Source of the DNA: Vermamoeba vermiformis
Lineage: Eukaryota
NCBI GenBank assembly: GCA_045837725.1
Contig: JBEWZL010000306.1
Span: forward strand, 62,001 to 126,000
Direction: 5' to 3'
DNA length: 64,000 nt
This document shows positions 8,155 through 40,600 of the stretch, one piece after another. The notes under the pieces are model-generated. The model saw only the letters and a program-made list of their open reading frames with translations. It was not told the origin of the DNA and searched no databases. Numbering within the stretch: position 1 is the stretch's first letter; the number at the start of each line of letters is the position of its first letter. A program made the translations under genes and the position numbers.

Positions 8155-10262
8155 TTACGCGCTTTGATTAGAAGTAGTACTACCGGCAGTATTATAGCTA
8201 TTCTTACTCCTACGCTGCGTCGTAGTGTTACCAGATCCAGATGGACTTTTGTCGGGCATGAACCAGACTTGAATGAAAGTAATAAGACCTAATAATACGG
8301 ACTCTACATATATCGCTACTAGCTCAAAAATGATGCTCTTGTAAACAATATAATACCGCAGGATGAAAGCGCAGGGAGGATAAATACAAGCAATAATTGT
8401 CGAGATAATAATCGATACACGGCTCTAGATACACTAATATTAATATATATGTACTATTATGGCATTCTAACATTTTGATTTACCTTCATGAGGCTATCTA
8501 GTCGAGGTTTACTATCGGCGTTCATTTGCTCGGATCGATTAATAATCTCCAACGCTTTTACGGCTATCAATATTACCGTTCATTAATATAAGTGGTAATA
8601 TTAATATATAGTAGAACAACGTACCGACAATGATGTAGAAACAAGCGACGGTCATGCCAGTAGCTAACGAAATGGCTCCGAGTGCGACGAAAAGCGGTAG
8701 AATAGTAATGTAGATCAATAGCAAGGCATTGATAGCTGGTAGTATTATAATAATAGCAACGAGGATCCAGAATGGTATCTGCATTCTGATCAAAAAGTCA
8801 GTACGCGAACAAGTTTTATGAATTTCCAAATAAGGCAATACTTACTTCTTGGACAAGAACGCTTGTACTTCTGTGTCTGCGAACTGATTGATGACTTCGA
8901 ACCAGAAGAATGCCATCAGCACCAGTGCTGCGACTGAGAAAATAAAGTTAAGGAATAACTATGAAAAAGTTCAAATTAGCCATCCGAGGGCCGTGCTTAT
9001 ATGAAGGATACAAGACCACGTAGCCGGCCAAGTGTCAATAAACGCGTCGATAGCAGCACTATATATTCCCCAGGTCAAGAGCGGATCTATCCATCGAACG
9101 ATCATCACTGAAATGAAATCGAGGGAAACGTTAGACCAAAACTAAATACATAATAAAGGTTACATATACGTACAAATGCAAAATACCGCTTGAAAGAACA
9201 AATAAACAAAGCTGATATTCCAGATAAAGCCAGTCTCTTTCACTTTTCGGACAAACTTGTAGATCACGAGCGCGAGAAGCAAGAGATAAAATACAAAGAA
9301 TACTGCGTTCAATGCGATGAACCACCATGTGTATGCGATTTTTTTATGCCACATACTGACGCCTGTAATAATTGTCATCAAAAACAATCTCGGTACGTAG
9401 CTTGTTAAAATTATATAATTTTTAGCAGAATTTCTACGCACCAGGAGTAATTTCCAACGTCACGTACGGTGAGTGGGCGAGAAGATCTGTTAACCTTTGG
9501 TAATCCGGTTTTGACACCTTTAAAGGTAGAGTTAGTTTGACAGCTGTCATACTTACGATATAAACACTAATGCTTACCAATACAGCGGGAATCTCAAGTG
9601 GAGATCGGCTGAGCGGAATGCGAGATCTTCTACCATTAAATTCGGGTGGATTCAAATCGCTAATAAGTACTGCAGCTGCTCCAGCTATATCATAAATACG
9701 TTAGTGATGCCGGAATTAATTTATATTGTCTAATTAGAAGCATTTTCTCTGAGAGGAAAGAAATTCTGAGCGAATTTTTCCTATTTTGAAGCGCAGCCTG
9801 AATTATGAGCGCGAGCGACGTACCATTGACTGCTGCGGCATATTGATTCACAGGAGTGCAAGGTCCTATTGGTATAAAAGCAATCATGCCTTCAGCTGAG
9901 TACGGAACGCATCCAGGAGACTGGCAAAAAAAAAAATTAGTAGATCGAACTGTAGGCACTAGATCATTGATAAAATCTACTATAATCTTGTCTTTTGTGC
10001 ATAATACAATAGTAATATTTGTACCTGAAACGTAACATTGCCAATAACTTTGAAATCAGTGGGTCCACCGACAAATCCATTTGTTAGAGTGGGCGTATTG
10101 AACTCAGGATCGCTGTATAATGAATAATGAGTAAATATTACGCATGTTATTTTAACAATTCTAGACAACTTACGGTACGATTGGAAAAATGACGCGGGTC
10201 GCGGATGTGACAGCAAATAGCACAACGACAGTCGAAAACAATAGCCTATGGCGATTCTGCAT
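8155..10262 (-). CDS. Signal peptide + PA domain + ~7TM membrane protein, copy A
   Basis: Hydrophobic N-terminus; PA-like GMIAFIPIGPCT..AAVNAGAAAVLISD..LEIPAVLVS; seven hydrophobic segments ending LLGLITFIQVWF; U12 intron 8934-9011. Confidence 0.75.
8934..9011 (-). other. U12-type GT-AG intron (copy A)
   Basis: 5' GTATCCTT; branch TTCCTTAAC at 8947-8955; removal restores WPATWS|FAALV. Confidence 0.9.
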
Positions 10263-10566
10263 CTCACATATGTAATAAATAACTCGGTCTAGTTGTCATT
10301 TATTGAACTGTTGCTATTTTAGCGTAAACTGAAACTAAACAAGCCTTATTAGGCTTTATCTATTTAAATTATCGGAAATTTGCTTATAATTGACAGTCAA
10401 AATTAGTACATTAGAAGCAGCTGCTCCAGAATAGCTAAGAATGTTGAGCGCGAAACGGTCATTACCTCGTATTCTATTTGTCTTCCTTGCGGCCGTTATT
10501 AAAATAATCGTAATTAATTTACTCCATCGTGCCATTGTCAATAATTCGTGCAACGTTCTCGTAGTA

Positions 10567-12605
10567 TTACAAATGGTTACCAGATCCGGATGGAAGTTTA
10601 TCCGGCATGAACCAGACTTGAATGAAGGTAATAAGACCTAATAATACGGACTCTACATATATATCGGCTAGCGCGAAGATTGAGCTCTTGTAGACAATGT
10701 AATAACGCAAGATGAAAGCGCAGGGAGGATAAATACAAGCAATAATTGTCGAGATAATAATCGATACACGGCTCTAGATACACTAATATTAATATATATG
10801 TACTATTATGGCATTCTAACATTTTGATTTACCTTCATGAGGCTATCTAGTCGAGGTTTACTATCGGCGTTCATTTGCTCGGATCGATTAATAATCTCCA
10901 ACGCTTTTACGGCTATCAATAATACCGTTCATTAATATAAGTGGTAATATTAATATATAGTAGAACAACGTACCGACAATGATGTAGAAACAAGCGACTA
11001 TCATGCCAGTAGCTAACGAAACGGCTCCCAGCGCAACGAAAAGCGGTAGAATTGTAATGTAGATCAATAGTATGGCATTAATCGATGGTAGTACTATAAT
11101 AATACCACCGAGTATCCAGAACGGGATCTGCATTCTAGCCAAAAAGTCAGTGCACGAACAAGTTTTATGAATTTCCAAATAAGGAAATACTCACTTTTTG
11201 GACAAGAACGCTTGTACTTTGGTGTCTGCGAACTGATTGATGACTTCGAACCAGAAGAACGCCATCAGCATCAGCGCTACGACTAATAACAAAAGTAAAG
11301 GAAAAGTTAAAATATTAAACGTGGATTAAAAACGGATAAACGCAACGTATGAAATGGATACACGACCATCTAGCGGGCCACGTGTCAATAAATACGTCGA
11401 TAACAGTGCTATATATTCCCCAAGTCAAAAGCGGATCTATCCATCGAACGATCATCACTGAAAAATTAATGATCGTTAGACATGAATAATTAAGCTTATG
11501 TACGCACAAATGCAAAATGCCGCTTGCAAGAATAAATAAACAAAGCTGATGTTCCAGATAAAGCCAGTCGCTTTGACTTTTCGAACAAACTTGTAGATCA
11601 CGAGTGCGAGTAGCAGGAGATAAAATACAAAGAATATAGCATTCAATGCGATGAACCACCATGTGTACGCGATATTTTGATGCCACAAACTGACGCCTGT
11701 AATAATTGTCATCAAAACAATCTCGGTACGTAGCTTTTAAAAATTATATTATTATTTAGCAGAATTTCTACGCACCAGGAGTAATTTCCAACGTCAAGTA
11801 CGGTGAGTTGGCGAGAAGATCCTTGAGCCTAAAGTAATCCGGTTTTGACACCTTCGAGGTAGAGTTAGCGTGACAGTGTCATACTTCAAATATTAGTGTT
11901 GGGCACTTACCAAGACAACAGGAATCTCAAGCGGAGATTGGCTGAGAGGAATGCGCGATCTTCTACCATGAATTTCGGGTGCATCGAAATCGCAGAAAAG
12001 TACTGCAGCTGCTCCAGCTATATCAGAAATACGTTAGTGATAGCGGTATTTATTATTGTATATCTTTCGTATTGTCGAACAAGGCAGTTTCTTTGATTTC
12101 CGAGTTTTTCCAAATTTGGAGTGCGATCTGAATTTACTGCGCGAAATCGACGTACCATCGATTGCCGCGGCATACTGATTCTCACGAGTACATTGTCCTA
12201 ATGGTATGAGTGGTAGCATGCCTTCAGCTGTGTATGGATCGCATCCAGGAGGCTGGCAAATAAAATTTAGATCGAACTGTCTATCGGTCTTAATCTGTAT
12301 ATTATTGCTAAAAGCTACTATGATTGTATTTAGATATCATACTATAATAGTAAGATGTGTACCTGAAACGTAACATTGCCAATAACTTTGAAATCGGTGG
12401 GTCCACCAACAAATCCGTTTGTTAGAGCGGGCGTATTGAACTCAGGATTGCTGTACAATGAATACATTAGCAAAAAATGCATATTTGATATTTAAAAATT
12501 CTCTTTAACTTACGGTACGATTGGAAAAATGATGCGGCTTGCGGATGTTAGAGCAATTATTAGCACTACGACAGCAAAATACAATAGACCATGGTGTTTG
12601 TACAT
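10567..12605 (-). CDS. PA domain + ~7TM protein, copy B (shortened C-tail)
   Basis: Same exon structure as copy A with long near-identical stretches; ends QVWFMPDKLPSGSGNHL*. Confidence 0.72.
11283..11361 (-). other. U12-type intron with degenerate signals (copy B)
   Basis: 5' GTATCCAT; branch TTCCTTTAC; same position and phase as in paralogs. Confidence 0.75.
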
Positions 12606-12931
12606 CTCTGTGTCACACGTGACATTTGTTATAAATAACTCGGTCTAGTGTCAAGCGTCGTTTGCAAGTTGAAAGGTGCTCTTTTTTGGCTAAAACTTAA
12701 ACTGGGCAAGCCGGATTAGGTTCAAGTTTTGGCTATTTATATTATCAAAAATTTGCTCATAATTGGCACCGAAAATTTGTGTTCGCAATACATAATGTAA
12801 AATTTACTGCTGTAGATTTTTAAAAATCTGTTATAATAATTGAGCGCGAAGATCATTACCTCGTATTCTCTACGCATTTCCTTGCCAACCATTATTTAAC
12901 TAATTTACTCTATTTGAGACCATAGTATAAT

Positions 12932-12983
12932 TCATTTCATTGAATAGTGCAACGGTCTCGTGGTGCATTATTCAATGAAATGA
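12932..12983. repeat. 20-bp inverted repeat with 12-nt spacer
   Basis: TCATTTCATTGAATAGTGCA ... TGCATTATTCAATGAAATGA, one mismatch (G-U pair on the + strand). Confidence 0.85.
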
Positions 12984-13480
12984 TAAAAACAAAATAATTT
13001 GTTTGCTTATGAATGAAAGCACAATGCTACCGGCTCTCACGCGACAGTAAATTATGTTGTTTGCTGTTACGCTTCAAATAATGGTGAAGGCAAATCGATC
13101 GAGTCTCGAACAAATCTGGGTAACTATCAATTAAGCAATTATTTTTCTATTTACAATTTAAATTATATAATTTATGTTCAAAATTTTAACGTGAAGCGTT
13201 AGGAAAACGAAGCGCACAGATTACAAGGGGATGGCGAAAATACCTTACCTTCTTCAATGCCTGTTGCCTGTTTGATATCATCACACTCGTGCCCTCAAGG
13301 AGAAACGGACATTTACAATTGAGCCGAGCGCTTCTCGAATGAAAATAATCAATGTCCGGCCAAACGGAGAAATATAATTGACGCGAGCGAAGGATCCAAG
13401 GCCAAATACAAAAAGAAAAACAGATTAGTAGTCAATCATCAACAACTTAATAGCAACAACAAATACTACCACTGCAAATC

Positions 13481-14407
13481 ATGTCTTCTGCTACTGAATC
13501 AAGAGTTTGGCTCATTACCGGCTGCTCATCTGGATTTGGCTTTGAACTCGTTCGTGCAGCTCTTGCTCGTGGCGAAAAAGTCATTGCTACTGCTCGGTCA
13601 ATCGACAAGATCGAGGAATTGAAGGCCGCCGGCGCTGCTACTCTGAGTTTGGATGTGACAAGTCCTCTTTCTGAACTCAACGCTGTAGCGGAGAGAGCGA
13701 TTGCCATTTATGGAAAAGTTGATGTATTAATCAACAATGCTGCATTCATCTTACAAGGTGCCATGGAAGAGAACACGTAAGTAGCGAGGAAAAATTCGGT
13801 TCAGATCTAACTTTGCCTTTCTAGACCTGAAGAGACCTTCCAACAATTCAACACTAACGTATTTGGATTACTCAACGTCACTCGCGCATTTTTACCTCAC
13901 ATGCGCGCTCGCAAATCCGGAGTTATCGTCAACATTGGAAGTATCGGCGGATGGGGTGGCGCCGCAGGAGCAGGACTCTATTGCTCGACTAAATTTGCGT
14001 TAGAAGGCATTACTGAAGCATTGCGCAGTGAAGTAGCACATCTGGGCATCAAAGTCATAGTCATTGAACCCGGCTACTTTCGCACTCAATTGCTCAAGCC
14101 AGGCAACACGCAAGCCTCTAGTACTATCCAGGACTATGAAGCTAGTGTCGGCCCCGTAAGAAAAATGCTCGAGGCTTATAATGGAAAACAACCTGGAGAC
14201 CCCAAAAAGGCCGCCGAACGCATCGTGGACATTGTTACGCAATCTGGCACCGCGCAAGGCCGAGAAATTCCAGTACGCGTTGCATTAGGCACGGATGCTT
14301 ATGCCTATATTAAAGGCACCATCGAACAGTCGTTGAAGGACTTGGAAGCATGGAAAGATGTTACCATTACAACGGATCACGATGACGTTAAACAAGCAGC
14401 TTATTAA
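13481..14407 (+). CDS. Classical short-chain dehydrogenase/reductase
   Basis: TGCSSGFG cofactor motif, NNA, catalytic YCSTK, IEPGYFRT; one intron near 13777-13824. Confidence 0.92.
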
Positions 14408-14448
14408 TTATTAATTATTCTTGTATTAAATAAATCGCTAATTTTACA

Positions 14449-16616
14449 TTAGACTTCAACTGTTGAATTGGCAGTCGTAGTCGTATTTTCTTTGTCTCTC
14501 ACCGAGTTCAGACTTTGAGATCCCTTACTCGTGGAAGACATTCCAGGAGATTTCTCGGGCATGAACCAAACTTGAATGAATGTAATAAGGCCTAGCAACG
14601 TTGATTCTTCATATAGAACTGCAAGACCGAAGAACAGATTGCCACCGACGATGTAGTAGCGCAAGATGAAATTGCAAGGCGGATAAATACAAGCGATGAT
14701 TGTTGAGATAATGATCGATATCCGGCTCTAATAATATCATTACTATATATATTTGGTTTAGATGAAATTAATTACGTACTCTCATTAACCCTCTGACGCG
14801 AGATTTCTTGTCGACGTTCAATCGTTCGGATCTCTTAATAACTTGTAACGCTTTAACAGCTGAACAAAAGTTATTAGCACAAATATTATTGCTGGCAATA
14901 TACACCTCTATTCATACCAACGATAATGTAGAAACAGGCTACGATCATTCCTGCAGCAAATTCAATGCCCAACAGGGCGACGAACAAAGTGCGAATGGTG
15001 AGAAAGCTCAATAGGATGGCATTAAGAGCGGGCAGCAAGATAATAATTCCGACGAGGATCCAGAAAGGGATCTGCATTCTGATCAAAAAAGTCAGTACAC
15101 GAACAATTAAGAATTTCCAAATAAGGCAATACTCACTTTTTGGACAAGAACGCTTGTACTTTTGTGTCTGCGAACTGATTGATGACTTCGAACCAGAAGA
15201 ACGCCATCAGCACCAGCGCTGCGACTGAAAAATACGAGGTTAAGGAATAAATATGAAAAAGCAAGTTGAATCAGTGGGCAATGTATGAATCGTTGTCAGA
15301 AGGATACATGACCACGTAGCAGGCCACGTGTCGATAAATGCATCTGCCATTGAGCTAATGATACCCCAAGTCAAGAGCGGATCGATCCAACGAACGATCA
15401 TCACTTTGGATCAGTTAGTAAGGCTCGTTATCATGATATGAAGGTACTTACATATACAAAATACTGCTTGCAATCCTAAGTAGACGAAGCTAATGTTCAA
15501 AACGAATCCAGTCGCTCGAACTTTTCGGACGAACTTGTAGATCACAAGTGCCAATAACGCCAAGTAGAATAGGCCATATAGGATATTCAACGTGATGAAC
15601 CAACCTGTGAAGCCAATATTTTTGTGCCATTCGCTTACTCCTACGCATATCATGCGAGATTAATATCTTCTATAAATTTAAAACGCCAAGTATACGAATA
15701 AAATTTAATATCGTTCGATAAAAGATCAATTACCTGGAGTAATATTAATTGTCACATACGGCTCAGTTTTGTTAACAATCATGTCTCTGAGCTTGAAATA
15801 ATCTGGACCCGACATCTGGACAAGAAAAGTCGTCAGATTAGCAGCTGCGGTTCAATACTGTCGAGTAGTACTATGACTTACAATGACTGCAGGGATATCA
15901 AGTGGCGTATTGCTCAACGGAATGCGGGATCTGCGTCCAACAACTCCGGGCACATCGTAATCACTGAAAATAACGCCGGCAGCTCCCGCTACACATAAAA
16001 ATAGGTCAATCGTTAATATTACGCGCGTTCATATTAAAATTGTTACTGTATCAATAAATCGAAATTAAGGCCCGGAGTTACAGAGCCGATTCTAAGTTTC
16101 CCTTTTAAAGAAGAATTAAAATTGCCAAAAATACAAACCTTCTTTCGCCAATTCAAATTGATGTTCACGACCGCAATGTCCGATAGGAATAACTACTATC
16201 ATGCCCGCAGCTGAAAAAGATTCGCAGCCAGGGATCTGGATCAGACCATAAAATTAGTTTAAAATTTTAAAGATGACAACCTTTCGAAATCAATCGATTC
16301 GACATTGTAATGCAAAAATTTGATATGAAAGTCGATCTATATGCCATTAAACGCACCTGTAACGATACATTGGCAGTGACAGAAAAGTCCGTAACACCAC
16401 CGACAAATCCGTTCGTCATGACAGGCGTATTCATTTCCGGCCTTATTGTTGTACAATTAGTAACCATTTGATATCATAATCAAATCAAGTTTGTCTCGAT
16501 AATTCTTCGACTTACATTCCAGGCGGAAAAACATACTGGCTGGCAGATGCGATATTGAACAGAACCAACGTTACAAAAAATAATAGAACAGAATGACCTA
16601 CACGCATTTCGTTCAT
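14449..16616 (-). CDS. PA domain + ~7TM protein, copy C
   Basis: Same exon series and motifs (TNGFVGG, RWIDPLLTWG, MQIPFW, ITFIQVWF); U12 intron 15225-15307. Confidence 0.72.
15225..15307 (-). other. U12-type GT-AG intron (copy C)
   Basis: 5' GTATCCTT; branch TTCCTTAAC at 15239-15247. Confidence 0.9.
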
Positions 16617-17319
16617 TTGTGGTCGTTACTTGGAGCTTGTATTAAATTAAATGGCACCGCCGGACGTAATTTTTTCATGATTTCTTTGCTGCATAGAAAT
16701 TTGCTAATTGGGGCAGTAATTTCAGATTGTGAGCGCTTGAACCACACCGATAAACCCAACGGCAATGCTATATTAAGCTGCGTGTTACCATAATGATCAT
16801 TATGACTATGTCGTAGCTTAACAATCTGGTCTTACTTGGTATTTGAGCTCTTTTAACTATTCATCGCCTTCTGTAAAATTCAAGTTTGAGAACAAACTCC
16901 GCGCCAACACAAGTTTAAACTTGATCCTTGATATACGTACGAAAATTGTTGTTCATACTAATACGTGCGAGGGATGATATATTCTAGCACACTTCGGCAA
17001 AATAAAATAATTAATTCAAAAATTTAAAATTGAATGACCACTGCCAAAATCGTAGCACAAATGTTTGAAAAGTATAGTACGATATTTTGTATATTAGAAA
17101 AAAATTGACGGAAGGATCAAACTCGTTTCGAAATATTGCAAATCAATTACCTGATTCTTTTTATACTAATTACTTGTTTGTCTAAAATCCAGCATTTTTA
17201 ATGCTTGAAGACGCGCAAAATTTACATCGTGTGGTTTGCTCTACGGAATTAAAAAGATATGAAGCGAAATACTTTACTAGGCGCCAAATTAACTATATTA
17301 CATACTATTAGACTACATC

Positions 17320-19464
17320 CTAATTAGAGCTGGTTACGACCTCATGCACCGAATTAGTCGTTATAGTGTCCTTGTGGCGGATCGGCGAAGCCTTCGCTGA
17401 TACACTAGTGCTCTTATCAGGCATGAACCAGACTTGAATGAAGGTAATAATGCCGAGAAACACTGACTCTTCATATAGAACTGCAAGACCAAAGTACAGG
17501 CTATCATAGAGAATGTTGTAGCGTAACGCAAAATTGCAGGGCGGATAGACGCAGGCAATTATTGTTGAAATGATGATCGATACGCGGCTCTAATTAGAGC
17601 AATATTAATGTGAGTGCTATAATTTAAGGTTACATACTCTCATTAAGCCTCTGATGCGAGATTTCTTGTCTACGTTGAGTCGTTCGGATCTCTTAAGTAC
17701 TTGCAACATTTTGACAGCTAAACAACATAATTAGGTTATTATGACATTTGATCAACATTTCTATGCATACCGACGATAATGTAGAAGCAGGCCACAATCA
17801 TTCCGGTCGCGAAAGAAATACCCAGGAGCGCAACAAACAGAACCAGAATTGAAAATGCGTTCAATAGAATCGAATTGATAGCAGGCAGTAGGATAATTAT
17901 AGAGACAAGAATCCAGAAAGGAATTTGCATTCTATAACACAAAATTAATCTCCAGATCCAGATCGATTTCCTTTTTAGGTTAAACTACTAAAAATTTAAA
18001 GTAACGGCAATACTTACTTTTTGGACAAGAACGCTTGTACTTTTGTGTCTGCAAACTGATTGATGACTTCGAACCAGAAGAACGCCATCAGTATCAGTGC
18101 TGCGACTGAGAATCATAAAGTTAAGGAATAAGTATGAAAAAGTGAAGTTAAGGAATAAATATGAAACCCGTTCTGATTAGAATCGAAAAACTGAAGAGTT
18201 GTCATAAGGATACATGACCACGTAGCAGGCCACGTGTCAATAAACGCATCAATCACTTCGCTGTACATTCCCCACGTCAAAAGCGGATCGATCCAACGAA
18301 CGATCATCACTTTGAATCAGTTAGTTATTACAATCACGTAAAACTTATAATACGTACATGCACAAAAGATGCCCTGGAAGATAAGATAGACGAAGCTAAT
18401 GTTCAAAACGAATCCAGTCGCTCGAACTTTTCGGACGAACTTGAAGATCACGAGTGCCAACAACGCCACGTAGAATAGGCCAAATATGATGTTCAATGTG
18501 ATGAACCAGCCTGTTATTGCAACGTTCTTGTGCCATTCGCTTACTCCTACGCATGTCATTCGAGATTAATATCTTCTATAAAATTTAGTAATCTCGCAAC
18601 TATTAAAAACTTAATTTGCCAAGTCTATAATTAGGACCAAATCGTTACCTGGAGTAAGCTCCACTGTTACGTATGGAGCGTTGTTCATTATTTCAAGCAC
18701 CATGTGGTAATCTGGTCCTGAGATCTGACACAAAAGTTGTAGATATCATGACATGTAGCGTTGTATCTCTATACCAAGACTTACAAAAACCACAGGGACC
18801 TCGAGTGGCGTACTGCTAATTGGGGTACGTGATCGTCGGCCATTAGTCTCAGGCGTGTCGACAAAATCGCAAAAAATAACTCCGGCCACCCCTGCTAATA
18901 TAACTTAGTTAATACTCAATATGATAGAGCTAGTTCATTTCTTTGTATATAATATGACCCTTGCCTAGAGCGAGATCGAAATTTTGCCTTAGAAAGAGCA
19001 GACCGAATTCTTAATTTGCCTTTTAAGGTTTTTAAAGCGAAATTATTACTAACCGTCTAGTGCCAATTGGTATTGGTATTCGCGCGTGCAAGGTCCTATC
19101 GGCATAATAGCAATCATGCCTTCAGCTGAGAATGGAGCACACATCTGCACGATAAAAAATTAGCTTGACACGTGCAGCACTTAATTAAATCGATCATTTG
19201 CATAAGTTGATATACGATTGAATATATAGTATTGCTAGTTGCGTACCTGAGCTGTAATGTTTCCAATGACAGAAAAATCCGTCAGACTGCCAATAAAGCC
19301 GTTTGTATTAGCAGGAGTATTTATGTCGTTCCTGTAATCTTTTGATTAGCACTTAATAGTATAATATGACGTTGCTAGGTAAGTACTTACGGCATCGGAG
19401 GAAAAAGTATTTGGCTGGCAGATGCAGCACCGATCAGCACTACGAGCAATATAAGGCGCTCCAT
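17320..19464 (-). CDS. PA domain + ~7TM protein, copy D
   Basis: Starts MERLILLVVLIGAASASQ; same exon series; U12 intron 18106-18213. Confidence 0.72.
18106..18213 (-). other. U12-type GT-AG intron with duplicated branch site (copy D)
   Basis: 5' GTATCCTT; TTCCTTAAC at both 18120-18128 and 18147-18155. Confidence 0.9.
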
Positions 19465-19673
19465 GTGCAAAATCTGCAACCCTTAACCCTCATTTGTGGT
19501 CGTTTGTTCGTTCGTTATTTAGAATGACATGCTAATAAACAAAATTTGGTCCGCTGCAACATTTAAGTTTGTGATTTGACTGAAACAGCGCTAATCATCG
19601 CGATGACTCACAACAGCATACTGCCCTAACAACATATTAATCTCCGTAGTTACCTCTTATAAAGGTCACTAAC

Positions 19674-21415
19674 CTACGCCTCTTCTCGTGATGTAATTGC
19701 CTTCGGCGGATCTGCATGTTTTTCGCCAGCTTTTTTCTTCGAAGGTGTTGCAACACTGCCCGAAGAACAGCCAGTATTCTTATCGGGCAAGAACCAAACT
19801 TGAATGAAGGTTATAATCCCTAATAATACTGACTCTATGTATAATGCCGCGAGTGCATAAACGACACCTCTGTACGCGGTGTAGTAACACAAGACAAAAG
19901 CAATCGGAGGATAAATGCAAGCTATGATTGTTGATATTATGATCGATATCCGACTCTAAATATAGAATATTAGATATGGCCATTGATAGTGTAAATTACG
20001 TACTCTCATCAGGCCCTGAACGCGAGATCTTATCGGCGTTCAATGTTTTGGATCTCTTTATGATTTCCAACGCTTTAACAACTTCAAATGAAAATTAATA
20101 CTGTTGTCTTATCAATTGGCAGTACTTCCTACTTACCGACTGTGATGTAAAAACAAGCTATTAGCATTCCTGTGCCTAACCACACCGCTAACAGCACAAC
20201 GAATAGAGCAGCAATACGGATGTAATTGACAAGAATTGCGTTGATGGCGGGCAATAATACGATGATAGCAGTAAAGATCCAGAACGGGATCTGCATTCTG
20301 ATCGAAAAGTCAGTACGCGAACACAAGTTTTATGAATTTCCAAATAAGGCAATACTTACTTTTTGGACAAGAACGCTTGTACTTTTGTGTCTGCGAACTG
20401 ATTGATGACTTCGAACCAGAAGAACGCCATCAGCACCAGCGCTGCGACTGAGAAACGCAAGGTTAAGGAAAAATACCAGGATTGAATTAGAACGTATAAA
20501 TTCGCTCGGTATGAAAAGGATACATGACCACGTAGCAGGCCACAAGTCCATTAAGACTTCAGCAACTGACGTATATAGGCCCCAAGTCAAGACCGGATCC
20601 ATCCACCACACGATCATCACTAATAATCAATTAATCGCGATTAGTTGTGATCGACCATATTTAATCTCTCTTACGTATGCAAAATGCAGCTTGAAAGTAC
20701 AGATAAACAAAGCTAATATTCAGCAGTACGCCGGTCGCTCTAGCTTTCCGAACAAATTTGTAGATCACGAGCGCGAACAGTGCGATATAAAATAGACCGA
20801 ACATAATATTGAATGTTATGAACCAGCCTGTTATTGCAATGTTCGTATGCCACACGCTAACGCCTTTTCGAAGATAATAATTAGAAATTTCGACTCTTTT
20901 CGTTTGCTATTTTAAGCCTCGTACCTGGTCTAATCTCAATCAATACATTATTATTGCTGATTTCAATGAGCATCTTAAGATCAGGAGCCGAGATCTATCA
21001 AATTAAAGATTTGAAATTGATATTCTCGTCTTGTGGCAAAAATGACACCTGATATACTTACCATCACTGCGGGTATCTCTAGTGGAGTTTTGCTTATTGG
21101 CATGCGCGATCGTCTTCCATTGGTGGCGTAGCTATCAAAATCACAGAATATTACTCCGACGGCTCCCGCTATATTAAGAAGTCAGTATATTTTGCAGCAC
21201 TTTCTATCTGTGTTATTATGGACATAGTAAGTTGTATATGCTATAATAGCTAATTTCTTTGTCTCAGCAAGCTACGGTCCGGATGCGCTTGGTACGTTAA
21301 AAACTTAAAACGACATACATTCTAAAGCCAAGGAATATTGTCGTTCGCTACTACAAGGTCCTACTGTTACTAAAGCTATCATGCCTTTCGCTGTATAAGC
21401 TGCGCATCCAAACCC
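19674..21415 (-). CDS. PA domain + ~7TM protein, copy E, lacking the first two paralogous exons (truncated gene or pseudogene)
   Basis: Homologous exons from GFGCAAYTAKGMIAL onward; the signal-peptide and GFVGG exons were not found before the LRR gene stop at 21552; U12 intron 20448-20523. Confidence 0.6.
20448..20523 (-). other. U12-type GT-AG intron (copy E)
   Basis: 5' GTATCCTTT; branch TTCCTTAAC at 20462-20470. Confidence 0.9.
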
Positions 21416-21551
21416 CTACGTTAAGTTCGTTTCATGAGCATCTTTGGTACGTTACTTGGTTCAGTAACAGCAAATGATGGCCTAAGATGGTCATAAATAA
21501 AAACAAGTCGTTCAACATTTAATTCAATACTGGTGTTGATGTCTGTCAAGG

Positions 21552-23359
21552 TTAAAAACTCAAAAGAGAAACAGCGAATGCCAACAACGGCAAGACAGGC
21601 AGCAAAATCGAACTATCAGAAGCCTTCTTGCAGCCAGACTCGTCCTTGGTAATTGTGACCGTGACTGCTTCAGCTTCATTGTTCTGAGTGGTTTTCAGCA
21701 CCACGCAAGACTGCACTGGATCGAGAATGATTGTCAGAATCGATGCACGTATGATCATACGAGACGCTACTTACGATTACTGTTGACAGTAATAGAACCA
21801 AAGTTGAGGTTGTCAGTGCCGCAGTAGGAGTTGAAAGTGAAGATCGTGCGCTCAATTGAACTCGAAGAACTCAATTCTTTGACTTCATCTTCGGTCAATG
21901 TAAACGACAACGAAGGGGTTCCTGTAGTAATGACTGTTAATACTTTTGAACTTCCCTTATGGCGTTATTCTTACCCTTGACTGTCGCACAGCCGTACACG
22001 ATAAGATCGCCCTCGGTGAGAGTAAGGGCTCCCGAAATAGTAAGGTTTCCAACGATGACAAGATCTCCAATTTCTGCGCCTGATGCAGGCTCGTAGGAGC
22101 CATAGATGGCCCATACAGGCTCTCTGTTAACATTGACTTGACAAACGGCGTTGCTATTAGGCGCAGGTTGAGGGCACGACTTCACACCTGCCAATAAGAA
22201 GTTGATACGCGTACGTTAAAATAATCAAAAGCCAACTTACAGTCGATTTTTGTAGTGTTGCACTTGGGATTGGTTGGAATACAGCACAAGTTGGTGCCAG
22301 AAACATCGCACGTAATAACTGTTGGAAGACTCACGTTGTAGCAGCCAGCGAGAGGATTGTTGGAAATGTTGAACCTGCCAAGGTTCGGGAGGTCTGACAA
22401 TCCAGGGTAGATCAAGCCCGTCAACAAGTTGTTGCCCGCATCAAACACTTCCAAAGTAGTGCACAATGCCAAGTCAGCTGGAATCATGCCGCTCAATTGA
22501 TTTGAAGAGAGCCGGAGGTCAGTCAGTTTCGGCATGTGACCAAGTTGCCAAGGTATAGTGCCAGTGAGCTGATTGCTATCTAAATACAGAGATTTCAGCG
22601 ACGATAACTGCTGAAGCTCGCCAGGTATGGTGCCCGTCAGTTGATTGTTAGATGCGTCAAAATTAATGAGTTGATTAAGCTGCTTCAATTCGGGAGGGAT
22701 GGTGCCAGTAAGTCTATTTTTGTTGATGAGTAGATTTTGGAGCCGTTGCATTCCGCCAATGTATGCAGGAATAGTACCAGTAACGCGAGTATTGTACAGG
22801 GCGAAACCAGTGAGGTTTACGAATGGTCGCAGATCCGGAAAGTCGCCAGTCAGGTCTGAGTCAAGGATTTGGTATTCGCTTAACGGGGAGCGAGCACTTT
22901 CGAGAAAGGTCGGAAGTTGCAGATTCGTCGTCCACCACAGATACAAAGATTGAAGATTTGGGAGAGAACCAATTTCGATTGGTAAAGGCCTCGATAAGGT
23001 CACATTATTGATCGTAATCGTCTGTAAGTAAGGCCAGTCTTTGATCCAATCCCCGATCTCAACCGCAGTTTGCTCTCTAACGTAACTACAATTTACTGGT
23101 TAATATTTTGCTTTATGGATTGCGAAAGAAGATCTTACAGCTCTGTTATGTGCATAGCGCCGTCCACCTCACGGCAAGAAACATAAGAAGGACTGCCGAT
23201 AGCGCATGGGTCTCCGGGAGTAATTGACCAAGTTGGAGGAACCAACGACGCGTTAAATAATTTATACGCATCTATCTCCGTCTTCGGAAGCTCCTGTGCT
23301 GAGCTGCAGACGATGAGAACAAAAATCTGCAGAATCATAAAACAAATAAACCGCCGCAT
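21552..23359 (-). CDS. Cell-surface leucine-rich repeat protein, probably GPI-anchored or C-terminally anchored
   Basis: Signal peptide, Cys N-cap, 24-aa plant-type LRRs (LxxNxLTGxIPxxL), Cys-rich C-cap, terminal hydrophobic stretch ILLPVLPLLAFAVSLLSF with no cytosolic tail. Confidence 0.85.
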
Positions 23360-23935: not shown

Positions 23936-25144
23936 TTACAAGCCTTCAAACAGTCCAAGTGCATACAAATGTGGTGCCGTGTGTCGACATTGAATGCCGT
24001 TCTCGTGCATGTATTCCAAGCAGTCTATGCGAGACAGTTCTGTTGCCACGTCGCACGCTTTGTAGTCCCAATGCGCTCCATTCTCGTGCGCGTAAGTCAA
24101 GCACTCTAGTGATCCGTACGATGCTGCATTTTCGCACGTAGCTTCATCCCATCCAGCACCGTTCTCGTACGCGTAGATCAGGCACTCTAAATTACCGGCG
24201 GCAGCTCTCGAACACACGCGATCGCTGAACGGACAGCCGTTCTCGTGAGCATAGACCAACATGTCAAAGTGACCCAAGGAAGCGCTGAGGTCAGTCACTA
24301 CTTCGTGCCATTCAGCGCCGCTCTCGTGCACGTACTGCAACACTTTAAAATTGCCGGAAAGTACTGCCTCGCGACAGATGTAGACGCTGTTCCAGCCACA
24401 TCCGTTTTCGTGCGCGTACTTTAAGCACTCGAAATGACCGTACTTGACTGCATTGAAGCACACATCTTCGTTCCACGGATGTCCGTGCTCGTGCAAGTAC
24501 TGCAACACTGGCAAATGGCCGTGCTTGGCTGCGAGTGAGTAGGCAACATTGTCTAACGGACAACCGTTCTCTAGAGCGTACTTCAAGCAAGTAACATGCC
24601 CGTTCATTGCCGCACGTGCTGTAGTATCGCTGCTCCATTGGCAGCCGTTCTCGTGAAGGTAGATCAAGACATCGATTTGTCCGCCCATTGCTGCCATAGC
24701 GCAAGTCTTCTCGTTCCATTTTGAGCCAGTCTCTCTTGCAAATTGAAGTCGCGAGAAGTAGCCATTGTACGCAGCGAAGTTGGCCCTGGTCCACATTGAA
24801 TTTTGGGTCAAGCAGAGATGCAACAGCTCGAGGTCTTCAACTCCTTTCAAATGTTCTTGCAATAAATCTCTACATATATTATTCAACTCTTTGCATGATT
24901 GTGATAGCATGTCGCAATTATGAATTAATTGGACGTAATCGTTTTCTTCTTTCGGATTAAAATTCATATATCGCACAATAGCAAGAATTATCTCCATGGG
25001 AAGTGCCAAAAAATCAATTCCTATATTTCCATCATTTTCTGCTAATTTTTGCTCGTTTGTAGACGCGCTGTCCAGAGATTGGTTGCAGATGCGCGCCTTT
25101 TTGGAGGGCTTCTCGCTATCCTCGTGCGCACTCTTTCTTTTCAT
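23936..25144 (-). CDS. Intronless F-box-like + ankyrin-like repeat protein
   Basis: Single ORF from MKRKSAHE; FLALPMEIILAIVRYM is F-box-like; about ten ~25-aa repeats of the form AAxxGHxxCLxYAHENGCxW. Confidence 0.85.
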   Translation of the reverse strand: MKRKSAHEDSEKPSKKARICNQSLDSASTNEQKLAENDGNIGIDFLALPMEIILAIVRYMNFNPKEENDYVQLIHNCDMLSQSCKELNNICRDLLQEHLKGVEDLELLHLCLTQNSMWTRANFAAYNGYFSRLQFARETGSKWNEKTCAMAAMGGQIDVLIYLHENGCQWSSDTTARAAMNGHVTCLKYALENGCPLDNVAYSLAAKHGHLPVLQYLHEHGHPWNEDVCFNAVKYGHFECLKYAHENGCGWNSVYICREAVLSGNFKVLQYVHESGAEWHEVVTDLSASLGHFDMLVYAHENGCPFSDRVCSRAAAGNLECLIYAYENGAGWDEATCENAASYGSLECLTYAHENGAHWDYKACDVATELSRIDCLEYMHENGIQCRHTAPHLYALGLFEGL

Positions 25145-25553
25145 TATAAAATTGTAATGAAGTTGCGAGTGACGTTGATTGAGCTCGGCTTTTGAACCAA
25201 TCAAGTCCTTATAAGGCTTCTCGAGCAATCTTGCGCTTGCTGGTTAATAATACTTTAATTATGCCATTGTGTTGATTTTTTGTTGTGTTTGTGCGTTCTC
25301 ATTGCTTAATCTCTGACTTTTCCGTCGAGGCAATAAAAATCTCCCGTCACGAGTTGTTGAAGCGATTCTCGACCTAAGATTTCAAGATTCGCATTAGAAT
25401 CTCCGCAGCTGTGATTTAACAGATATTATTTTAAATTCTTCCCGTATTTTTAGTTACTATTCGGCTTCCTATTCTTTTGGGATACCGGAGATAAATCGGG
25501 TGATAACTATCAGTCATTGAATAACAAAACTACGAACTCCGCACTCCAACAGT

Positions 25554-34644: not shown

Positions 34645-37600
34645 ATGGCCACACCTGAAGCTAAGCCAACGGTTCCTACTGATTCTGGTGTTGGGGTAAG
34701 TATAGCATCTAGTTTGGCGGATAGCGATAAATATCAAAAAACAATTAATAATCGTATTCGCTATAATACCATTATAACAATAATATTTTTTATGTGGACG
34801 TATTAATTACTTGGCAGATTATTACTTTGGTAGTAACTCTGCATCGAATCAGAAATTTATTATTATTTTCAACTCAATACAATAACGTTTATTTCGCTTA
34901 TTTTATGGATAAATGTGGCTAATACAACGATAGCCGTTATTAATATTATTTTTATTTATTTTAGGCGCCCACTCCCATCCAATCCGAGGAGCAGATTCTT
35001 GATAGAATCAAAAAATGGCAACAATTAAACAGCAAACGATATGCCGAGAAAAGAAAGTTCGGCTATGTTGAACCTCAGAAAGAAGACATGCCTCCAGAGC
35101 ATCTGCGAAAAATTATCAAGGATCACGGTGACATGTCCAGCAAGAAATTCAGACGTGATAAGCGTGTATATTTGGGAGCTTTGAAATATATGCCTCACGC
35201 TATTATGAAACTCATGGAAAACATGCCAATGTAAGTATCATATCCGCGCCAATCTGATGCGTTAACCTCAAATTGTAAAATTATTTGCAGGTCATCTAAT
35301 ATTATTTTTTTCTTAGGCCTTGGGAAAATGTGCGTCACGTTAAGGTCCTTTACCACATTTCCGGCGCGATCACCTTTGTCAACGAAATCCCACGCGTCGT
35401 CGAGCCCGTGTACACCGCTCAATGGGGTACCATGTGGGTGATGATGCGAAGAGAAAAGAGAGATCGTAAGCACTTTAAGCGAATGCGCTTCCCTCCTTTT
35501 GACGACGAAGAACCTCCACTTGACTTTGGTGACAACATTTTGGACGTCGAGCCTCTCGATCCGATCCGCATTGATTTGGACGAAGAAGAAGACGCTCCCG
35601 TCCTCGAGTGGTTCTATGACCCCAAGCCACTCGTAGGCACTCCCTACGTCAATGGTTCCAGCTACAAGAAATGGCGATTGAACACTCCTATCCTCGCCAA
35701 CTTGTACCGCTTGGCCAACCAATTGATGAGCGATTTGGTCGACAAGAACTATTTCTACATGTTCGAAGAGAAGTCTTTCTTCACCGCAAAGGCACTCAAC
35801 AGCGCTATTCCTGGCGGTCCTAAATTCGAGCCTTTGTTCAGAGATTTGGAAGACAACGATGAAGATTGGAACGAGTTCAACGACATTAACAAGATCATCA
35901 TTCGTCACCAAATCAGAACCGAGTACAAGGTCGCGTTCCCGTACCTCTACAACGACAGACCCAGAAAGGTCTACTTGGCCTATTACCACCACCCACCCGT
36001 GTGCTACATTAAGGCCGACGATCCTGACTTGCCCGCGTTCTTCTTCGACCCCCTCATCAACCCCATTGTGTCAGTTAAGGGCAAGAAGAAAGCCAAGAAG
36101 GAAGAATCCGAAGAAGAGGAAGACGACTTTGAATTGCCCGAAGGAGTCAAGCCCTTGTTGAACCAAGACGACTTCGAAATGCCCAAGGGATTCAAGCCTT
36201 TGCTTCGCGAGAGTGTTCCCGACCTCTACACCGAAAACACTGCCGACGGTATTGCTCTTTACTGGGCTCCTAAGCCTTTCAACCAACGCTCGGGACGTAC
36301 TCGTCGTGTTCTCGACGTTCCTCTCGTCAAGACTTGGTACCAAGAGCGCTGCCCTGGAGACTACCCCGTCAAGGTCCGTGTCAGCTACCAAAAGCTGCTC
36401 AAGTGCTACGTCCTTAACAGACTGCACTTCCGACCTCCCAAGCCTAAGACCAAGAAGTCACTCTTCAAGGCTTTCAAGGCTACCAAGTTCTTCCAATCTA
36501 CAGAAATCGATTGGGTTGAAGCTGGTTTGCAAGTTTGCCGTCAAGGCTACAACATGTTGAACTTGCTTATTCACCGCAAGAACTTGAATTACTTGCATTT
36601 GGACTACAACTTCAACTTGAAGCCCATCAAGACTCTTACCACCAAAGAACGTAAGAAGTCTCGCTTCGGTAACGCTTTCCACTTGTTGCGAGAAATCTTG
36701 AAGTTGACTAAGCTCGTCCTCGACGCTCACGTGCAATATCGATTGGGCAACGTTGAAGCCTTCCAACTTGCGGACGCTATTCACTACACCTTCACTCACG
36801 TTGGTCACTTGACGGGCATGTACCGTTACAAGTACCGTTTGATGCGTCAAATCAGAATGTGCAAGGATCTCAAGCACTTGATCTACTACAGATTCAACAC
36901 TGGTCCAGTCGGCAAAGGTCCTGGTGTTGGTTTCTGGGCTCCTTCTTGGAGAGTCTGGCTCTTCTTCATGCGCGGCATTGTTCCGCTCTTGGAGAGATGG
37001 TTGGGCAACTTGCTTGCTCGTCAATTCGAAGGTCGTAAGTCTAAGGGCATTGCTAAGACTGTCACCAAGCAACGTGTCGAAAGTCACTACGATATCGAAC
37101 TTCGTGCCGCCGTCCTTCGTGATATCCTGGATATGATGCCCGAAGGCATTCGTCAAAACAAGGCCAAGACCATTCTGCAACACTTGAGCGAGGCTTGGAG
37201 ATGCTTCAAGGCCAACATTCCATGGAAAGTTCCTGGTTTGCCCGCTCCTGTCGAGAACATGATCTTGCGTTACGTCAAGGCCAAGGCTGACTGGTGGACG
37301 TCTGCTGCTCACTACAACAGAGAACGTGTCCGCCGTGGTGCCACCGTCGACAAGACCGTCGTCAAGAAGAACTTGGGTCGTCTGACTCGTTTGTGGTTGA
37401 AGGCTGAACAAGAGCGTCAATTCAACTACTTGAAGGACGGTCCTTACATCTCGCCCGAAGAAGCCGTTGCTATCTACACCACTACCGTGCATTGGTTGGA
37501 AAGCAGAAGATTCTCCCCGATTCCGTTCCCGCCACTCAGCTACAAGCACGACACCAAGCTCCTGATCTTGGCTCTCGAAAGATTGAAGGAAGCTTACGCC

Positions 37601-40600
37601 GTGAAGAGTCGCTTGAACCAACTTCAACGTGAAGAATTGTCGCTGATCGAACAAGCTTACGATAATCCTCACGAGACCCTCAGCAGAATCAAGCGTTTGT
37701 TGCTTACGCAAAGAACATTCAAAGAAGTTGGCATTGAATTTATGGACTTGTTCACGCACTTGATTCCTGTCTACGAAATCGAGCCGTTGGAGAAGATCAC
37801 CGATGCTTACCTCGATCAATACCTCTGGTACGAAGGTGAGAAGCGCAGACTTTTCCCGAGCTGGATCAAGCCCGCCGACAGCGAGCCTCCACCATTGTTG
37901 GTCTACAAATGGTGTCAAGGCATTAATAACTTGACGGACGTCTGGGATACCTCCAACGGAGAGTGCGTGGTGCTCATGCAATCCAAGTTCGACAAGTTGT
38001 ACGACAAGATCGACTTGACTTTCTTGAACAGACTTCTGCGCTTGATTGTCGATCACAATCTTGCTGATTACATGACCGCCAAGAACAACATCGTCATTGC
38101 CTACAAGGATATGATGCATACGAATCACTACGGTTTGATTCGCGGTCTTCAATTCGCTTCTTTCGTCGTGCAATATTATGCGCTGATTTTGGATATTTTG
38201 ATGTTGGGTCTCTCACGCGCCTCTGACTTGGCTGGTCCTGCTAACAAGCCTAACGACTTCTTGACCTTCCCTGACGTCGCTACCGAAACCAAGTCGCCAA
38301 TCAGACTCTACACCAGATACATCGACAGGTTCTGGATTTTGTTCCGCTTCACTCACGACGAGGCCAGAGACCTCATTCAACGTTACTTGACCGAGAACCC
38401 CGATCCTAACAACGAAAACATGGTTGGTTACAACAACAAGAAATGCTGGCCTCGTGACGCTCGTATGCGCCTGATGAAGCACGATGTCAACTTAGGCAGA
38501 GCCGTCTTCTGGAGCATCAAGAACAGTCTTCCTCCTTCATTGACAACTATTCAATGGGAAGACTCTTTCGTCTCCGTATACAGCAAGGATAACCCGAACT
38601 TGTTGTTCGATATGGGCGGATTTGAAGTCCGAATCTTGCCAAAGATCCGTGCCTTCAACGAAGAATTCACTTTGAAGGAAGGTGCCTGGAACTTGCAGAA
38701 CGAGAGAACCAAGGAAAGAACCGCACAAGCCTTCTTGCGCGTTGGTGACGACTCCCTACGCGTCTTCGAGAACCGTGTTCGTCAGATCTTGATGGCTTCC
38801 GGTAGCACTACCTTCACCAAGATTGCTAACAAGTGGAACACCGCTTTGATTGGTCTTATGACCTACTACCGTGAAGCCTCTGTTCACACGCCCGAGTTGC
38901 TCGATCTTCTCGTCAAGTGCGAAACCAAGATTCAGACTCGTATCAAGATCGGTTTGAACTCTAAGATGCCTAGCCGTTTCCCTCCTGTGGTCTTCTACAC
39001 TCCTAAGGAATTGGGTGGTCTTGGTATGCTTTCTATGGGTCACGTCTTGATCCCTCAATCCGATCTGAAGTACGCCAAGCTTACTGAGCGTGAGACTTCC
39101 CACTACCGCGCTGGTATGAGCCACGAAGAAGGTCAACTCATTCCCAACTTGTACCGCTACATTCAACCTTGGGAACAAGAGTTCCAAGACTCACTCCGTG
39201 TCTGGGCCGAGTACGCCATCAAGAGAGACGAGGCCATGAGCCAGAACAGACGTCTTACCTTGGAAGATTTGGAAGACTCGTGGGACAAGGGTATTCCTCG
39301 TATCAACACCTTGTTCCAGAAGGATCGTCACGTCTTGGCCTACGACAAGGGCTGGAGAGTTCGAACTGAATTCAAGGCCTACCAAGTCCTCAAGCAGAAC
39401 CCCTTCTGGTGGACTCATCAACGTCACGACGGCAAGTTGTGGAACTTGAACAACTACCGTACCGATATGATTCAAGCTCTTGGTGGTGTCGAAGGTATTC
39501 TCGAACACACTCTCTTCAAGGGCACTGGTTTCCCTACTTGGGAAGGTCTCTTCTGGGAGAAGGCCTCTGGTTTCGAAGAGTCCATGAAATACAAGAAGCT
39601 GACCAACGCCCAACGTATGGGTCTCAATCAGATTCCCAACCGTCGTTTCACTTTGTGGTGGTCTCCTACCATCAACAGAGCCAACGTCTACGTCGGTTTC
39701 CAAGTGCAGCTCGATCTTACTGGTATTTTCATGCACGGTAAAATCCCCACGTTGAAGATCTCGCTGATTCAGATCTTCCGTGCTCACTTGTGGCAGAAGA
39801 TCCACGAAAGTGTTGTCATGGATCTTTGTCAAGTCTTCGATCAAGCTTTGGACTCGTTGGAAGTCGAAACCGTTCAGAAGGAAACTATTCACCCGAGAAA
39901 GTCCTACAAGATGAACAGCTCTTGCGCCGATATCTTGCTCTTCGCTGCCTACAAGTGGCAAGTCTCGAAGCCTTCGCTCTTGACCGACACCAACGACTCG
40001 TTCGACTACGGAACTACAACTAAGTACTGGGTCGACGTTCAACTCAGATGGGGAGACTTTGATTCCCACGACATTGAACGTTACAGCAGATCTCACTTCT
40101 TGGACTACACCACGGATAACGTCTCCATCTATCCTTCACCCACTGGTTGCTTGATTGGTATCGATCTTGCCTACAACGCTCACTCTGGCTACGGTAACTG
40201 GTTCCCTGGTGCCAAGCCGTTGATCTCTCAGGCTATGTCCAAGATCATGAAGGCCAACCCTGCTCTCTACGTCTTGCGAGAACGTATCAGAAAGGCCCTT
40301 CAATTGTACTCGTCCGAGCCTACTGAACCCTACTTGAACTCTCAGAACTACGGAGAGTTGTTCAGCAACCAGATCATTTGGTTCGTCGACGACACCAACG
40401 TGTATCGTGTTACCATCCACAAGACCTTCGAAGGTAACTTGACCACTAAGCCCATCAACGGTGCCATCTTCATCTTCAACCCGAGAACTGGTCAATTGTT
40501 CTTGAAGATCATTCACACCTCCGTCTGGGCTGGTCAAAAGCGTTTGGGTCAATTGGCCAAGTGGAAGACCGCCGAAGAAGTTGCTGCTCTCATTCGCTCC

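Follow-up and report, generated by a model that had tools for sequence, protein, structure and literature searches.

What kind of protein is encoded five times over in a 64-kb stretch of the Vermamoeba vermiformis genome (positions 62,001 to 126,000, forward strand, of contig JBEWZL010000306.1 in assembly GCA_045837725.1; the whole of these 64,000 nucleotides (nt) is called the window)? Five paralogous genes, named A to E, lie on the minus strand at 8155-21415 of the window. A to D are type-I-oriented seven-transmembrane (7TM) proteins, in which a predicted cleavable signal peptide is followed by an extracellular or lumenal, non-catalytic PA (protease-associated) domain of ~130 residues and by a bundle with the fold of G-protein-coupled receptors (GPCRs). 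We infer that they probably function as ligand-binding receptors, and we give the reading as ligand-binding signalling receptors a probability of roughly one half.

In the lists of open reading frames, the region shows few long frames and many short minus-strand frames which are repeated five times, indicating an intron-rich eukaryotic gene family. The last exon of C (58 amino acids (aa), window 14554-14727, minus strand) was used as query in a search for a guide among longer proteins, and a single protein of 469 aa, P0002, was found among 22 candidates (E 8.2e-23, 83% identity to this exon). Gene models were then made by splice-aware protein-to-DNA alignment with P0002 as guide, in which introns had to have GT..AG ends and a length of 35-400 nt, so GT..AG in 48 of 48 introns is a pattern imposed by the aligner. 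As the models were also rewarded for likeness to P0002, their residues at exon junctions may mimic this protein. The spliced alignment gives 11 exons in each of A-D and nine recognisable exons in E, and every final model contains one stop codon, at its end.

8155-10262, minus strand: paralog A, 446 aa in 11 exons, with signal peptide, PA domain, 7TM bundle and Ser/Thr-rich tail (spliced alignment to P0002)
10262-10174, 10112-10025, 9920-9824, 9684-9578, 9517-9442 and 9362-9174, minus strand: exons 1-6 of A (spliced alignment)
9107-9012, 8933-8846, 8785-8625, 8563-8484 and 8424-8155, minus strand: exons 7-11 of A (spliced alignment)
10567-12605, minus strand: paralog B, 426 aa in 11 exons with intron positions as in A, and a 13-residue tail after transmembrane helix 7 (TM7)
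14449-16616, minus strand: paralog C, 454 aa in 11 exons, the closest of the five copies to P0002 (69.5% identity)
16616-16516, 16441-15734, 15640-14563 and 14562-14452, minus strand: signal-peptide exon, PA exons, 7TM core and cytosolic tail of C, respectively
17320-19464, minus strand: paralog D, 439 aa in 11 exons, with the 7TM core at 18546-17430
19674-21415, minus strand: paralog E, 389 aa in nine recognisable exons, from the third exon (PA domain) to the stop codon

Intron positions are conserved across the copies, with intron lengths of 46-159 nt. Exon lengths are kept as well: exons of 189, 96, 88 and 161 nt recur in all five copies, and another is 80 nt long in A-D versus 82 nt in E. 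The identity of P0002 to the five copies is 61-70%, and the overall identity between copies is 59-84%, A and B being the closest pair (84%) and C and D the next (70%). A tblastn search with P0002 against the whole window matches only 8158-21409, always on the minus strand, and no sixth copy is found. Thus the first-pass annotation, which had proposed five tandem paralogs from the sequence alone, is borne out by tblastn and spliced alignment, with none elsewhere in the window.

The same annotation had described a signal peptide, a PA-like domain, seven hydrophobic segments with common motifs and a Ser/Thr-rich tail. Consistent with a predicted signal peptide, the N-terminus of each of A-D is a hydrophobic segment that runs up to TSA or ASA, and the motifs RWIDPLLTWG, FFWFEV and ITFIQVWF are present as described. 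In A-D, an N-x-S/T sequon occupies one common position of the ectodomain. PA domain and bundle are joined by the juxtamembrane stretch ITPG-x-S-x-W, which is conserved, and the loops expected to face the cytosol are rich in Lys and Arg. The tail is the part of the description that holds for some copies only: Ser and Thr make up 35-41% of it in A, C and D and 21% in E, while in B the Ser/Thr-rich tail has been lost and the 13 residues left after TM7 contain 15% Ser and Thr. All five copies and P0002 share a G-R-R-S-R loop of the PA domain, the glycine of which is found in 67 of 69 sequences of the wide family. The R-R-S-R part (for example residues 113-116 of C, in exon 15988-15882; RRAR in P0003) matches R-x-x-R, the minimal pattern of furin/Kex2-type processing sites, and could be such a site or else a basic ligand-binding patch.

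Is the ectodomain really a PA domain? The only Pfam match of P0002 is PA (PF02225), with 21.7 bits and E 2.3e-4 at a gathering cut-off of 23.9, and NCBIfam gives a chance-level match only (E 0.14). P0005, a more distant homolog, reaches 34.3 bits for PA and lies above the cut-off. A profile of four close-family sequences (A1) was searched exhaustively against 1.84 billion representatives, and it finds multi-PA bacterial proteins, namely P0061 (E 6.8e-10) and P0077 (E 1.7e-8), which match Pfam PA with E-values of 2e-57 and 5.2e-74, respectively. Among the wider relatives scanned with Pfam PA, 41 of 102 are matched at E <=0.05 and 30 of 102 are above the cut-off. Against the sequences of the PDB, A1 gives 14 rows at E <=10, which are weak PA matches (best RNF128, E 0.059) and two chance integrin rows, and the membrane part is unmatched at this threshold.

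The AlphaFold model of P0002, computed from an 80-sequence alignment, has a predicted local distance difference test (pLDDT) of 87.8 and a predicted template modelling score (pTM) of 0.84. In a Foldseek search with this model, PA domains take ranks 1-31 of 32 matches at E <=1e-3. The matches include VSR1 (9b1r, the best at E 3.9e-5, and 4tjv, with a TM-score of 0.60 on the target), ZNRF3/RNF43, GRAIL (3icu) and the aminopeptidase PaAP, and the TM-score on the target reaches 0.73. Judging by their titles, several of these entries are complexes with ligands (cargo peptides, R-spondin), and the nearest PA structures are non-catalytic ligand-binding ectodomains. Profile links, together with the superposition of the modelled P0002 on solved PA domains, support the predicted PA-like ectodomain.

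The first-pass annotation had also seen no protease, RING or YD/GxGD motif, and a motif search agrees: none of GxGD, HExxH, the RING pattern, DRY, NPxxY and CWxP is found in any of A-E. GxGD is absent from all nine sequences checked (A-E and P0002-P0005), in which YD and PAL are absent or at non-equivalent places, and no protease, peptidase or RING family is among the Pfam matches of P0002.

These ectodomain matches also speak for a different kind of protein, a cargo-sorting receptor, whose PA domain would recognise sorting peptides and thereby capture lumenal proteins in Golgi or endosomes, while the seven helices would serve as an anchor and a coat/adaptor platform for transport to the vacuole or lysosome. 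The best Foldseek matches are the PA domains of VSR1, several of them with cargo peptides by title, and RMR sorting receptors recognise their cargo by a lumenal PA domain, according to the parts consulted of PMC12552968. Known PA sorting receptors have a single TM helix, in contrast to the bundle found here, which is conserved, contains invariant D236 and E273 (P0002 numbering) and a conserved third intracellular loop (ICL3), and thereby exceeds the needs of an anchor. The sorting motifs YxxΦ and acidic dileucine were not noticed on reading the tails, for which no motif search was made. On balance we regard cargo sorting as a doubtful alternative, though one that deserves attention, to the signalling receptor.

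The membrane part was also compared with known folds. In the model of P0002, helices span residues 178-209, 215-235, 246-277, 289-315, 319-357, 362-398 and 401-424, and the same helices are found in the model of P0004, a homolog covering the membrane part only (pLDDT 88.9). Seven long helices in both AlphaFold models of homologs thus agree with the predicted seven TM helices. The VIA-align search covered 48,161 chains and listed 50 entries, and the tool advises caution for helical bundles up to about Z 13. For P0002, the 50 listed entries are without exception either class A GPCRs or designed folds of GPCR type, with Z from 19.6 to 17.3; against CMKLR1 the model gives Z 19.6 and a root-mean-square deviation (rmsd) of 3.8 Å over 252 aligned residues. 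The TM-only model of P0004 gives Z 19.2-17.0, with an rmsd of 4.1 Å over 257 aligned residues for the match at Z 19.2. Two independent models with Z of 17-19.6 to class A GPCRs over ~250 residues therefore favour the GPCR-like fold that had been suggested from the hydrophobic pattern. Moreover, the pTM of 0.84 for the full-length model and a conserved juxtamembrane N-x-W suggest that the PA domain may be held firmly on the bundle.

The bundle shares the GPCR fold, which is not the same as class A membership. DRY, NPxxY and CWxP are the signalling motifs of class A, and they are absent from A-E and from P0002-P0005; P0002 has no 7tm_1 match in Pfam at E <=1. Among the 50 listed VIA-align rows of either model, there are no structures of GOST proteins, Frizzled, cAMP receptors or fungal pheromone receptors, which does not exclude a relation to them. 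We considered the GOST family (GOLD domain and 7TM: GPR107/108, TMEM87, GPR180) and regard it as less likely, as the ectodomain is PA by fold and no GOST Pfam family is matched; for P0002, Lung_7-TM_R and GpcrRhopsn4 are both without a match. Other Pfam matches among the 102 relatives are PFF1_TM, in five of them and with at most 27.3 bits for a cut-off of 32.3, Frizzled, in four of them and always under its cut-off of 22.3 bits, and single weak ones to 7tm_1, Sru and Tetraspanin. As they are sub-threshold, all of these are treated as matches of hydrophobic segments, although a real link to the PFF1 membrane domain may exist.

Where, then, does the bundle come from? No Pfam family at all is matched on the membrane part of P0002-P0005. 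Among the 102 wider relatives, two match THH1_TOM1-3_dom (PF06454): P0147 with 33.8 bits, above the gathering score of 25, and P0048 with 24.4 bits, just below it. P0147 itself is found by the A1 profile, and its relatives are dictyostelid proteins named 'THH1/TOM1/TOM3 domain-containing'. From five such dictyostelid proteins a profile (A4) was made, and two of them, rescanned on PF06454, score 39.3 and 33.4 bits. Comparison of A1 with A4 by hhalign gives a probability of 93.5% (E 2.3e-7, 201 columns, 17% identity), in which a D-P motif after TM2 and the aromatic-rich TM3 are paired, and the wide family of 79 sequences, from which P0147 was left out, reaches 98.8% (E 1.4e-16) against A4, compared with 0.1-1.0% in four reversed controls. 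By these profile alignments the bundle is a remote relative of the TOM1 family, beyond the reach of the Pfam model, and the TOM1-like character that the first reading had guessed at is upheld.

This homology bears on the alternatives. It adds to the case for cargo sorting, since proteins related to the bundle have roles on endomembranes: the small GTPase ARL8 is co-purified with TOM1 (PMC3234234, parts consulted), and GPR137, a putative relative, is described as lysosomal in the portion consulted of 10.1101/2025.04.15.649019. The same findings would also suit a sensor of the lumenal state which regulates a small GTPase of the vacuole or lysosome, in the manner of GPR137B with Rag or TOM1 with ARL8; its PA domain would report lumenal content, for example peptides, and no heterotrimeric G protein would be involved. 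The homology of the bundle to THH1/TOM1/TOM3-domain proteins, the TOM1-ARL8 pair (parts consulted of PMC3234234), the connection of GPR137 with mTORC1 (portion consulted of 10.1101/2025.04.15.649019), the long, basic and conserved ICL3 and the absence of the class A G-protein motifs all fit such a sensor. However, the TOM1 homology is remote, with 17% identity, and function may not carry over such a distance; we consider the GTPase sensor unlikely, below cargo sorting.

In order to compare the two parts of the protein, identity and substitution rates were calculated for each domain. The amino-acid identity between copies is 46-78% in the ectodomain versus 67-91% in the TM core, and nonsynonymous divergence (dN) is 0.11-0.44 versus 0.045-0.21. 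The ratio of dN to synonymous divergence (dS) ranges from 0.09 to 0.17 for the TM core and from 0.09 to 0.50 for the ectodomain. The core is thus under purifying selection, and the earlier impression of a more divergent ectodomain is supported by lower identity and higher dN in this per-domain analysis. Estimates of dS are saturated (>1) in 14 of the 19 computable ectodomain and core comparisons; smaller values are obtained for the A-B pair, in the core of C-D and in the ectodomain of C-E. A and B form the youngest pair (dS 0.23-0.30). Between C and D, dS is 0.70 in the core versus 1.76 in the ectodomain, so far apart as to hint at gene conversion of the membrane part. Tandem duplication and faster change of the ectodomain suggest diversified ligand specificity, and the array offers a natural variant series for studies of it. 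With respect to cargo sorting, a diverging ectodomain in a tandem family fits changing external ligands at least as well.

Two copies depart from the common structure. B has lost its tail as described above, and E is damaged at its start and in exon 10.

21451-21541, minus strand: decayed exon 2 of E, which begins with DINT as exon 2 of D does, then diverges and has a stop codon in another frame
20020-20030, minus strand: place in exon 10 of E, within the part coding for ICL3, at which the frame departs from that of the other four copies and tblastn matches switch frame

Only 10 nt separate the decayed exon 2 from the stop codon (21554-21552) of an upstream leucine-rich repeat (LRR) gene, and this leaves no room for exon 1 of E, which would encode the signal peptide, or for a promoter. 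For exon 10 of E to remain in frame, both splice sites must lie downstream of their ancestral positions, the donor by 4 nt and the acceptor by 2 nt. E is either an expressed pseudogene or a truncated variant, and it is probably decaying. The LRR gene itself (window 21552-23099, minus strand) encodes plant-like 'LTGTIP' repeats, and its last exon ends with a Ser-rich stretch and a hydrophobic tail resembling a glycosylphosphatidylinositol (GPI)-anchor signal.

Are these genes expressed? Contigs of run X1 have no introns and are for this reason taken as transcript-derived, the 'RNA?' label of the run being a guess. Six of the 48 junctions are directly seen as spliced joints in these contigs, given here as exon end/exon start:

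17589/17638, 17717/17771 and 18724/18785: spliced joints of D in X1 contigs
20447/20524, 20862/20924 and 20994/21062: spliced joints of E in X1 contigs

Among the 12 aligned pieces of X1, seven are at least 99% identical, and loose ends at 11134, 20297 and 20360 run into the adjoining exon. E is transcribed and spliced despite its damage; X1 covers neither its exon 10-11 junction nor its 5' end. One X1 contig joins exon 3 of B (12252) to exon 2 of A (10025), going back 2228, and is most simply explained as an assembly chimera between transcripts of near-identical paralogs, so that expression of single paralogs cannot safely be read from the contigs. The RNA runs X4-X6, which carry the same species label, are sparse (56-89 reads each, mostly 90-95% alike), and their joints jump between paralogs, for example 8785/11195. 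The one junction for which they give support is the conserved one between exons 8 and 9, and this in the gene of a relative.

The damage in E (no exon 1, a decayed exon 2 and a frame change), the lost tail of B and an aligner which forced GT..AG introns and P0002 likeness could be taken to mean that the array is largely non-functional, either as a decaying lineage-specific expansion or because the gene models are artefacts of homolog-guided splicing. Against this, A-D are open across 11 exons with a terminal stop only, core dN/dS is 0.09-0.17, six junctions are confirmed in transcript-derived contigs, and the same architecture occurs in 47 of the 150 best database matches. For A-D such a reading is already largely refuted, and for the array it is very improbable.

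How widespread is the architecture? By word-indexed search of 5.8 billion clusters, the close family comprises 4 proteins at E <=1e-3 among 8,000 scored candidates. The exhaustive search with A1 gives 4 representatives at E <=1e-30, 47 at E <=1e-10 and 187 at E <=1e-3. Among the best 150 matches of this search, 47 contain PA and most of the bundle, 58 the bundle only, 31 are partial and 14 contain PA only; many of the bundle-only proteins are fragments or have other N-termini. As 47 of these 150 span both PA and 7TM, other genomes have the architecture too. Its carriers appear to belong to several lineages of protists and early fungi, and in the genome studied here it has been expanded in tandem. 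None of 20 looked-up matches has a functional name. They include two from EukProt transcriptomes labelled Nematostelium gracile and Protostelium nocturnum, both amoebozoans, and one cluster with an MMETSP transcript, and the rest come from JGI/IMG or Logan contigs. Endomyxa and Zoopagomycota are the commonest Atlas taxa of the nearest clusters, which is a lead only. The closest database homologs, P0002 and P0160, have been annotated automatically as 'ABC-type uncharacterized transport system fused permease/ATPase subunit'. Neither Pfam nor the fold supports this label, which is misleading for the closest one.

Full-text literature searches returned no description of a PA domain fused to a 7TM or TOM1-like bundle. 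In the main text of a choanoflagellate GPCR catalogue (10.1101/2025.04.15.649019), 'PA domain' and 'protease-associated' do not occur, and the main text of a fungal GPCR classification (PMC12842992) contains no TOM1, PA domain, protease-associated, GPR137 or Zoopagomycota. Within these texts, the architecture appears to be uncharacterised, as the first-pass annotation had supposed, and its absence from the searched parts of both catalogues points to a gap in them. Two known modules are combined here in a new, uncharacterised family.

In the mechanism we propose for the signalling receptor, the PA domain would bind a ligand, which may be a peptide, a protein or a glycan, either on the outside of the cell or within a lumen. 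Ligand binding is suggested by analogy, because VSR1, ZNRF3/RNF43 and GRAIL, the closest structural relatives, bind without protease activity. Occupancy of the ligand site would be passed through the bundle to its cytosolic face, where the Ser/Thr-rich tail and the TM5-ICL3-TM6 extension, which is long, basic and highly conserved, may engage a cytosolic partner, with a small GTPase or a heterotrimeric G protein as candidates. The membrane of action could be the plasma membrane or an endolysosomal/vacuolar membrane.

Several points weigh against the signalling receptor. The Pfam PA scores of P0002 (21.7 bits) and P0003 (22.5 bits) are below the cut-off, and the folds were computed for homologs (P0002 is 61-70% identical to the copies), not for the proteins of the window. 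The GPCR fold alone shows no function, and as DRY, NPxxY and CWxP are absent, G-protein coupling is without sequence support. THH1_TOM1-3_dom has no Pfam match at E <=1 in P0002-P0005 (gathering score 25 bits). TOM1/THH1-type proteins have been described mostly in the role of host factors in the replication of tobamoviruses, and what they do for the cell itself is unclear; since the role of TOM1 itself is not established, homology to it carries little functional information. Finally, gene conversion may have contributed to the likeness of the cores, as the dS contrast between C and D indicates.

A wider proposal can be put forward tentatively: PA-TOM1 proteins may represent an old, unrecognised class of GPCR-fold receptors of amoebozoans, other protists and early-diverging fungi, in which a ligand-binding ectodomain drives a TOM1/THH1-type bundle. 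If so, orphan TOM1-like proteins would have arisen from receptors that sense lumenal or extracellular ligands, or would be such sensors to this day, and the tandem expansion described here would read several different ligands. A branch of the TOM1 superfamily which carries a well-understood ligand-binding module provides a way to ask what these bundles sense and to whom they signal.

Other genes of the window were named by reading their sequences or by their frames. A short-chain dehydrogenase-like gene with at least two exons lies between B and C on the opposite strand (13454-14407, plus strand), and it has the deepest cover by X4-X6, up to 3.7 in the bin 13724-14200. An open frame of 435 aa at 23936-25243 (minus strand) contains ~10 repeats of ~33 residues around 'YaHENGCpW' with ankyrin-like spacing. 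At 35300-42070 (plus strand), an uninterrupted frame of 2256 aa is intronless, compared with ten introns per 7TM gene, and presumably encodes the spliceosomal protein Prp8.

Compared with known systems, the proteins described here resemble different families in different parts. VSR1, RMR, ZNRF3/RNF43 and GRAIL/RNF128 also have a PA domain which is non-catalytic, lies on the lumenal or extracellular side and immediately precedes the membrane, whereas they have one TM helix with EGF (epidermal growth factor) repeats or a cytosolic RING in place of the seven helices here. The candidates PA-TM-RING E3 ligase (RNF13, GRAIL, ZNRF3, RMR) and VSR were accordingly rejected, the former as there is neither a RING pattern nor a RING Pfam family and there are seven helices, the latter for its single TM helix. 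Signal peptide peptidases of the SPPL2 type likewise join a lumenal PA domain to a polytopic membrane domain, and this identity was discarded because of seven GPCR-fold helices instead of nine, no GxGD and no peptidase Pfam family.

With class A GPCRs, the proteins share the fold (rmsd 3.5-4.3 Å and ~235-265 aligned residues in the top rows), the N-out/C-in topology and a Ser/Thr-rich C-terminal tail, but sequence identity to the bundle is 4-13%, and the 7tm_1 Pfam family and DRY/NPxxY/CWxP are missing here. In the portion consulted of 10.1101/2025.04.15.649019, GPR137 is described as lysosomal and linked with mTORC1, and it has no extra domains. The RSF ('Rémi-sans-famille') GPCRs of choanoflagellates and other protists, another 7TM family recently catalogued there, have a weak structural link to TOM1; as far as that portion goes, they differ in having no domain outside the 7TM, where a PA domain is present here, and in a short extra helix with NxLQxxMNxL between TM6 and TM7. 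This motif was not noticed on reading the copy sequences, for which no motif search was made. The THH1/TOM1/TOM3 family, with plant TOM1/TOM3 and dictyostelid members, shares a seven-helix bundle with profile-profile homology and differs by the N-terminal signal peptide and PA domain of the proteins here. In the texts consulted, no ectodomain is mentioned for plant TOM1. The dictyostelid TOM1-like proteins (P0156-P0159) have a Cys-rich N-terminus with weak EGF-like Pfam matches (E 0.016-0.54), and TOM1-like bundles may thus carry different ectodomains in different lineages.

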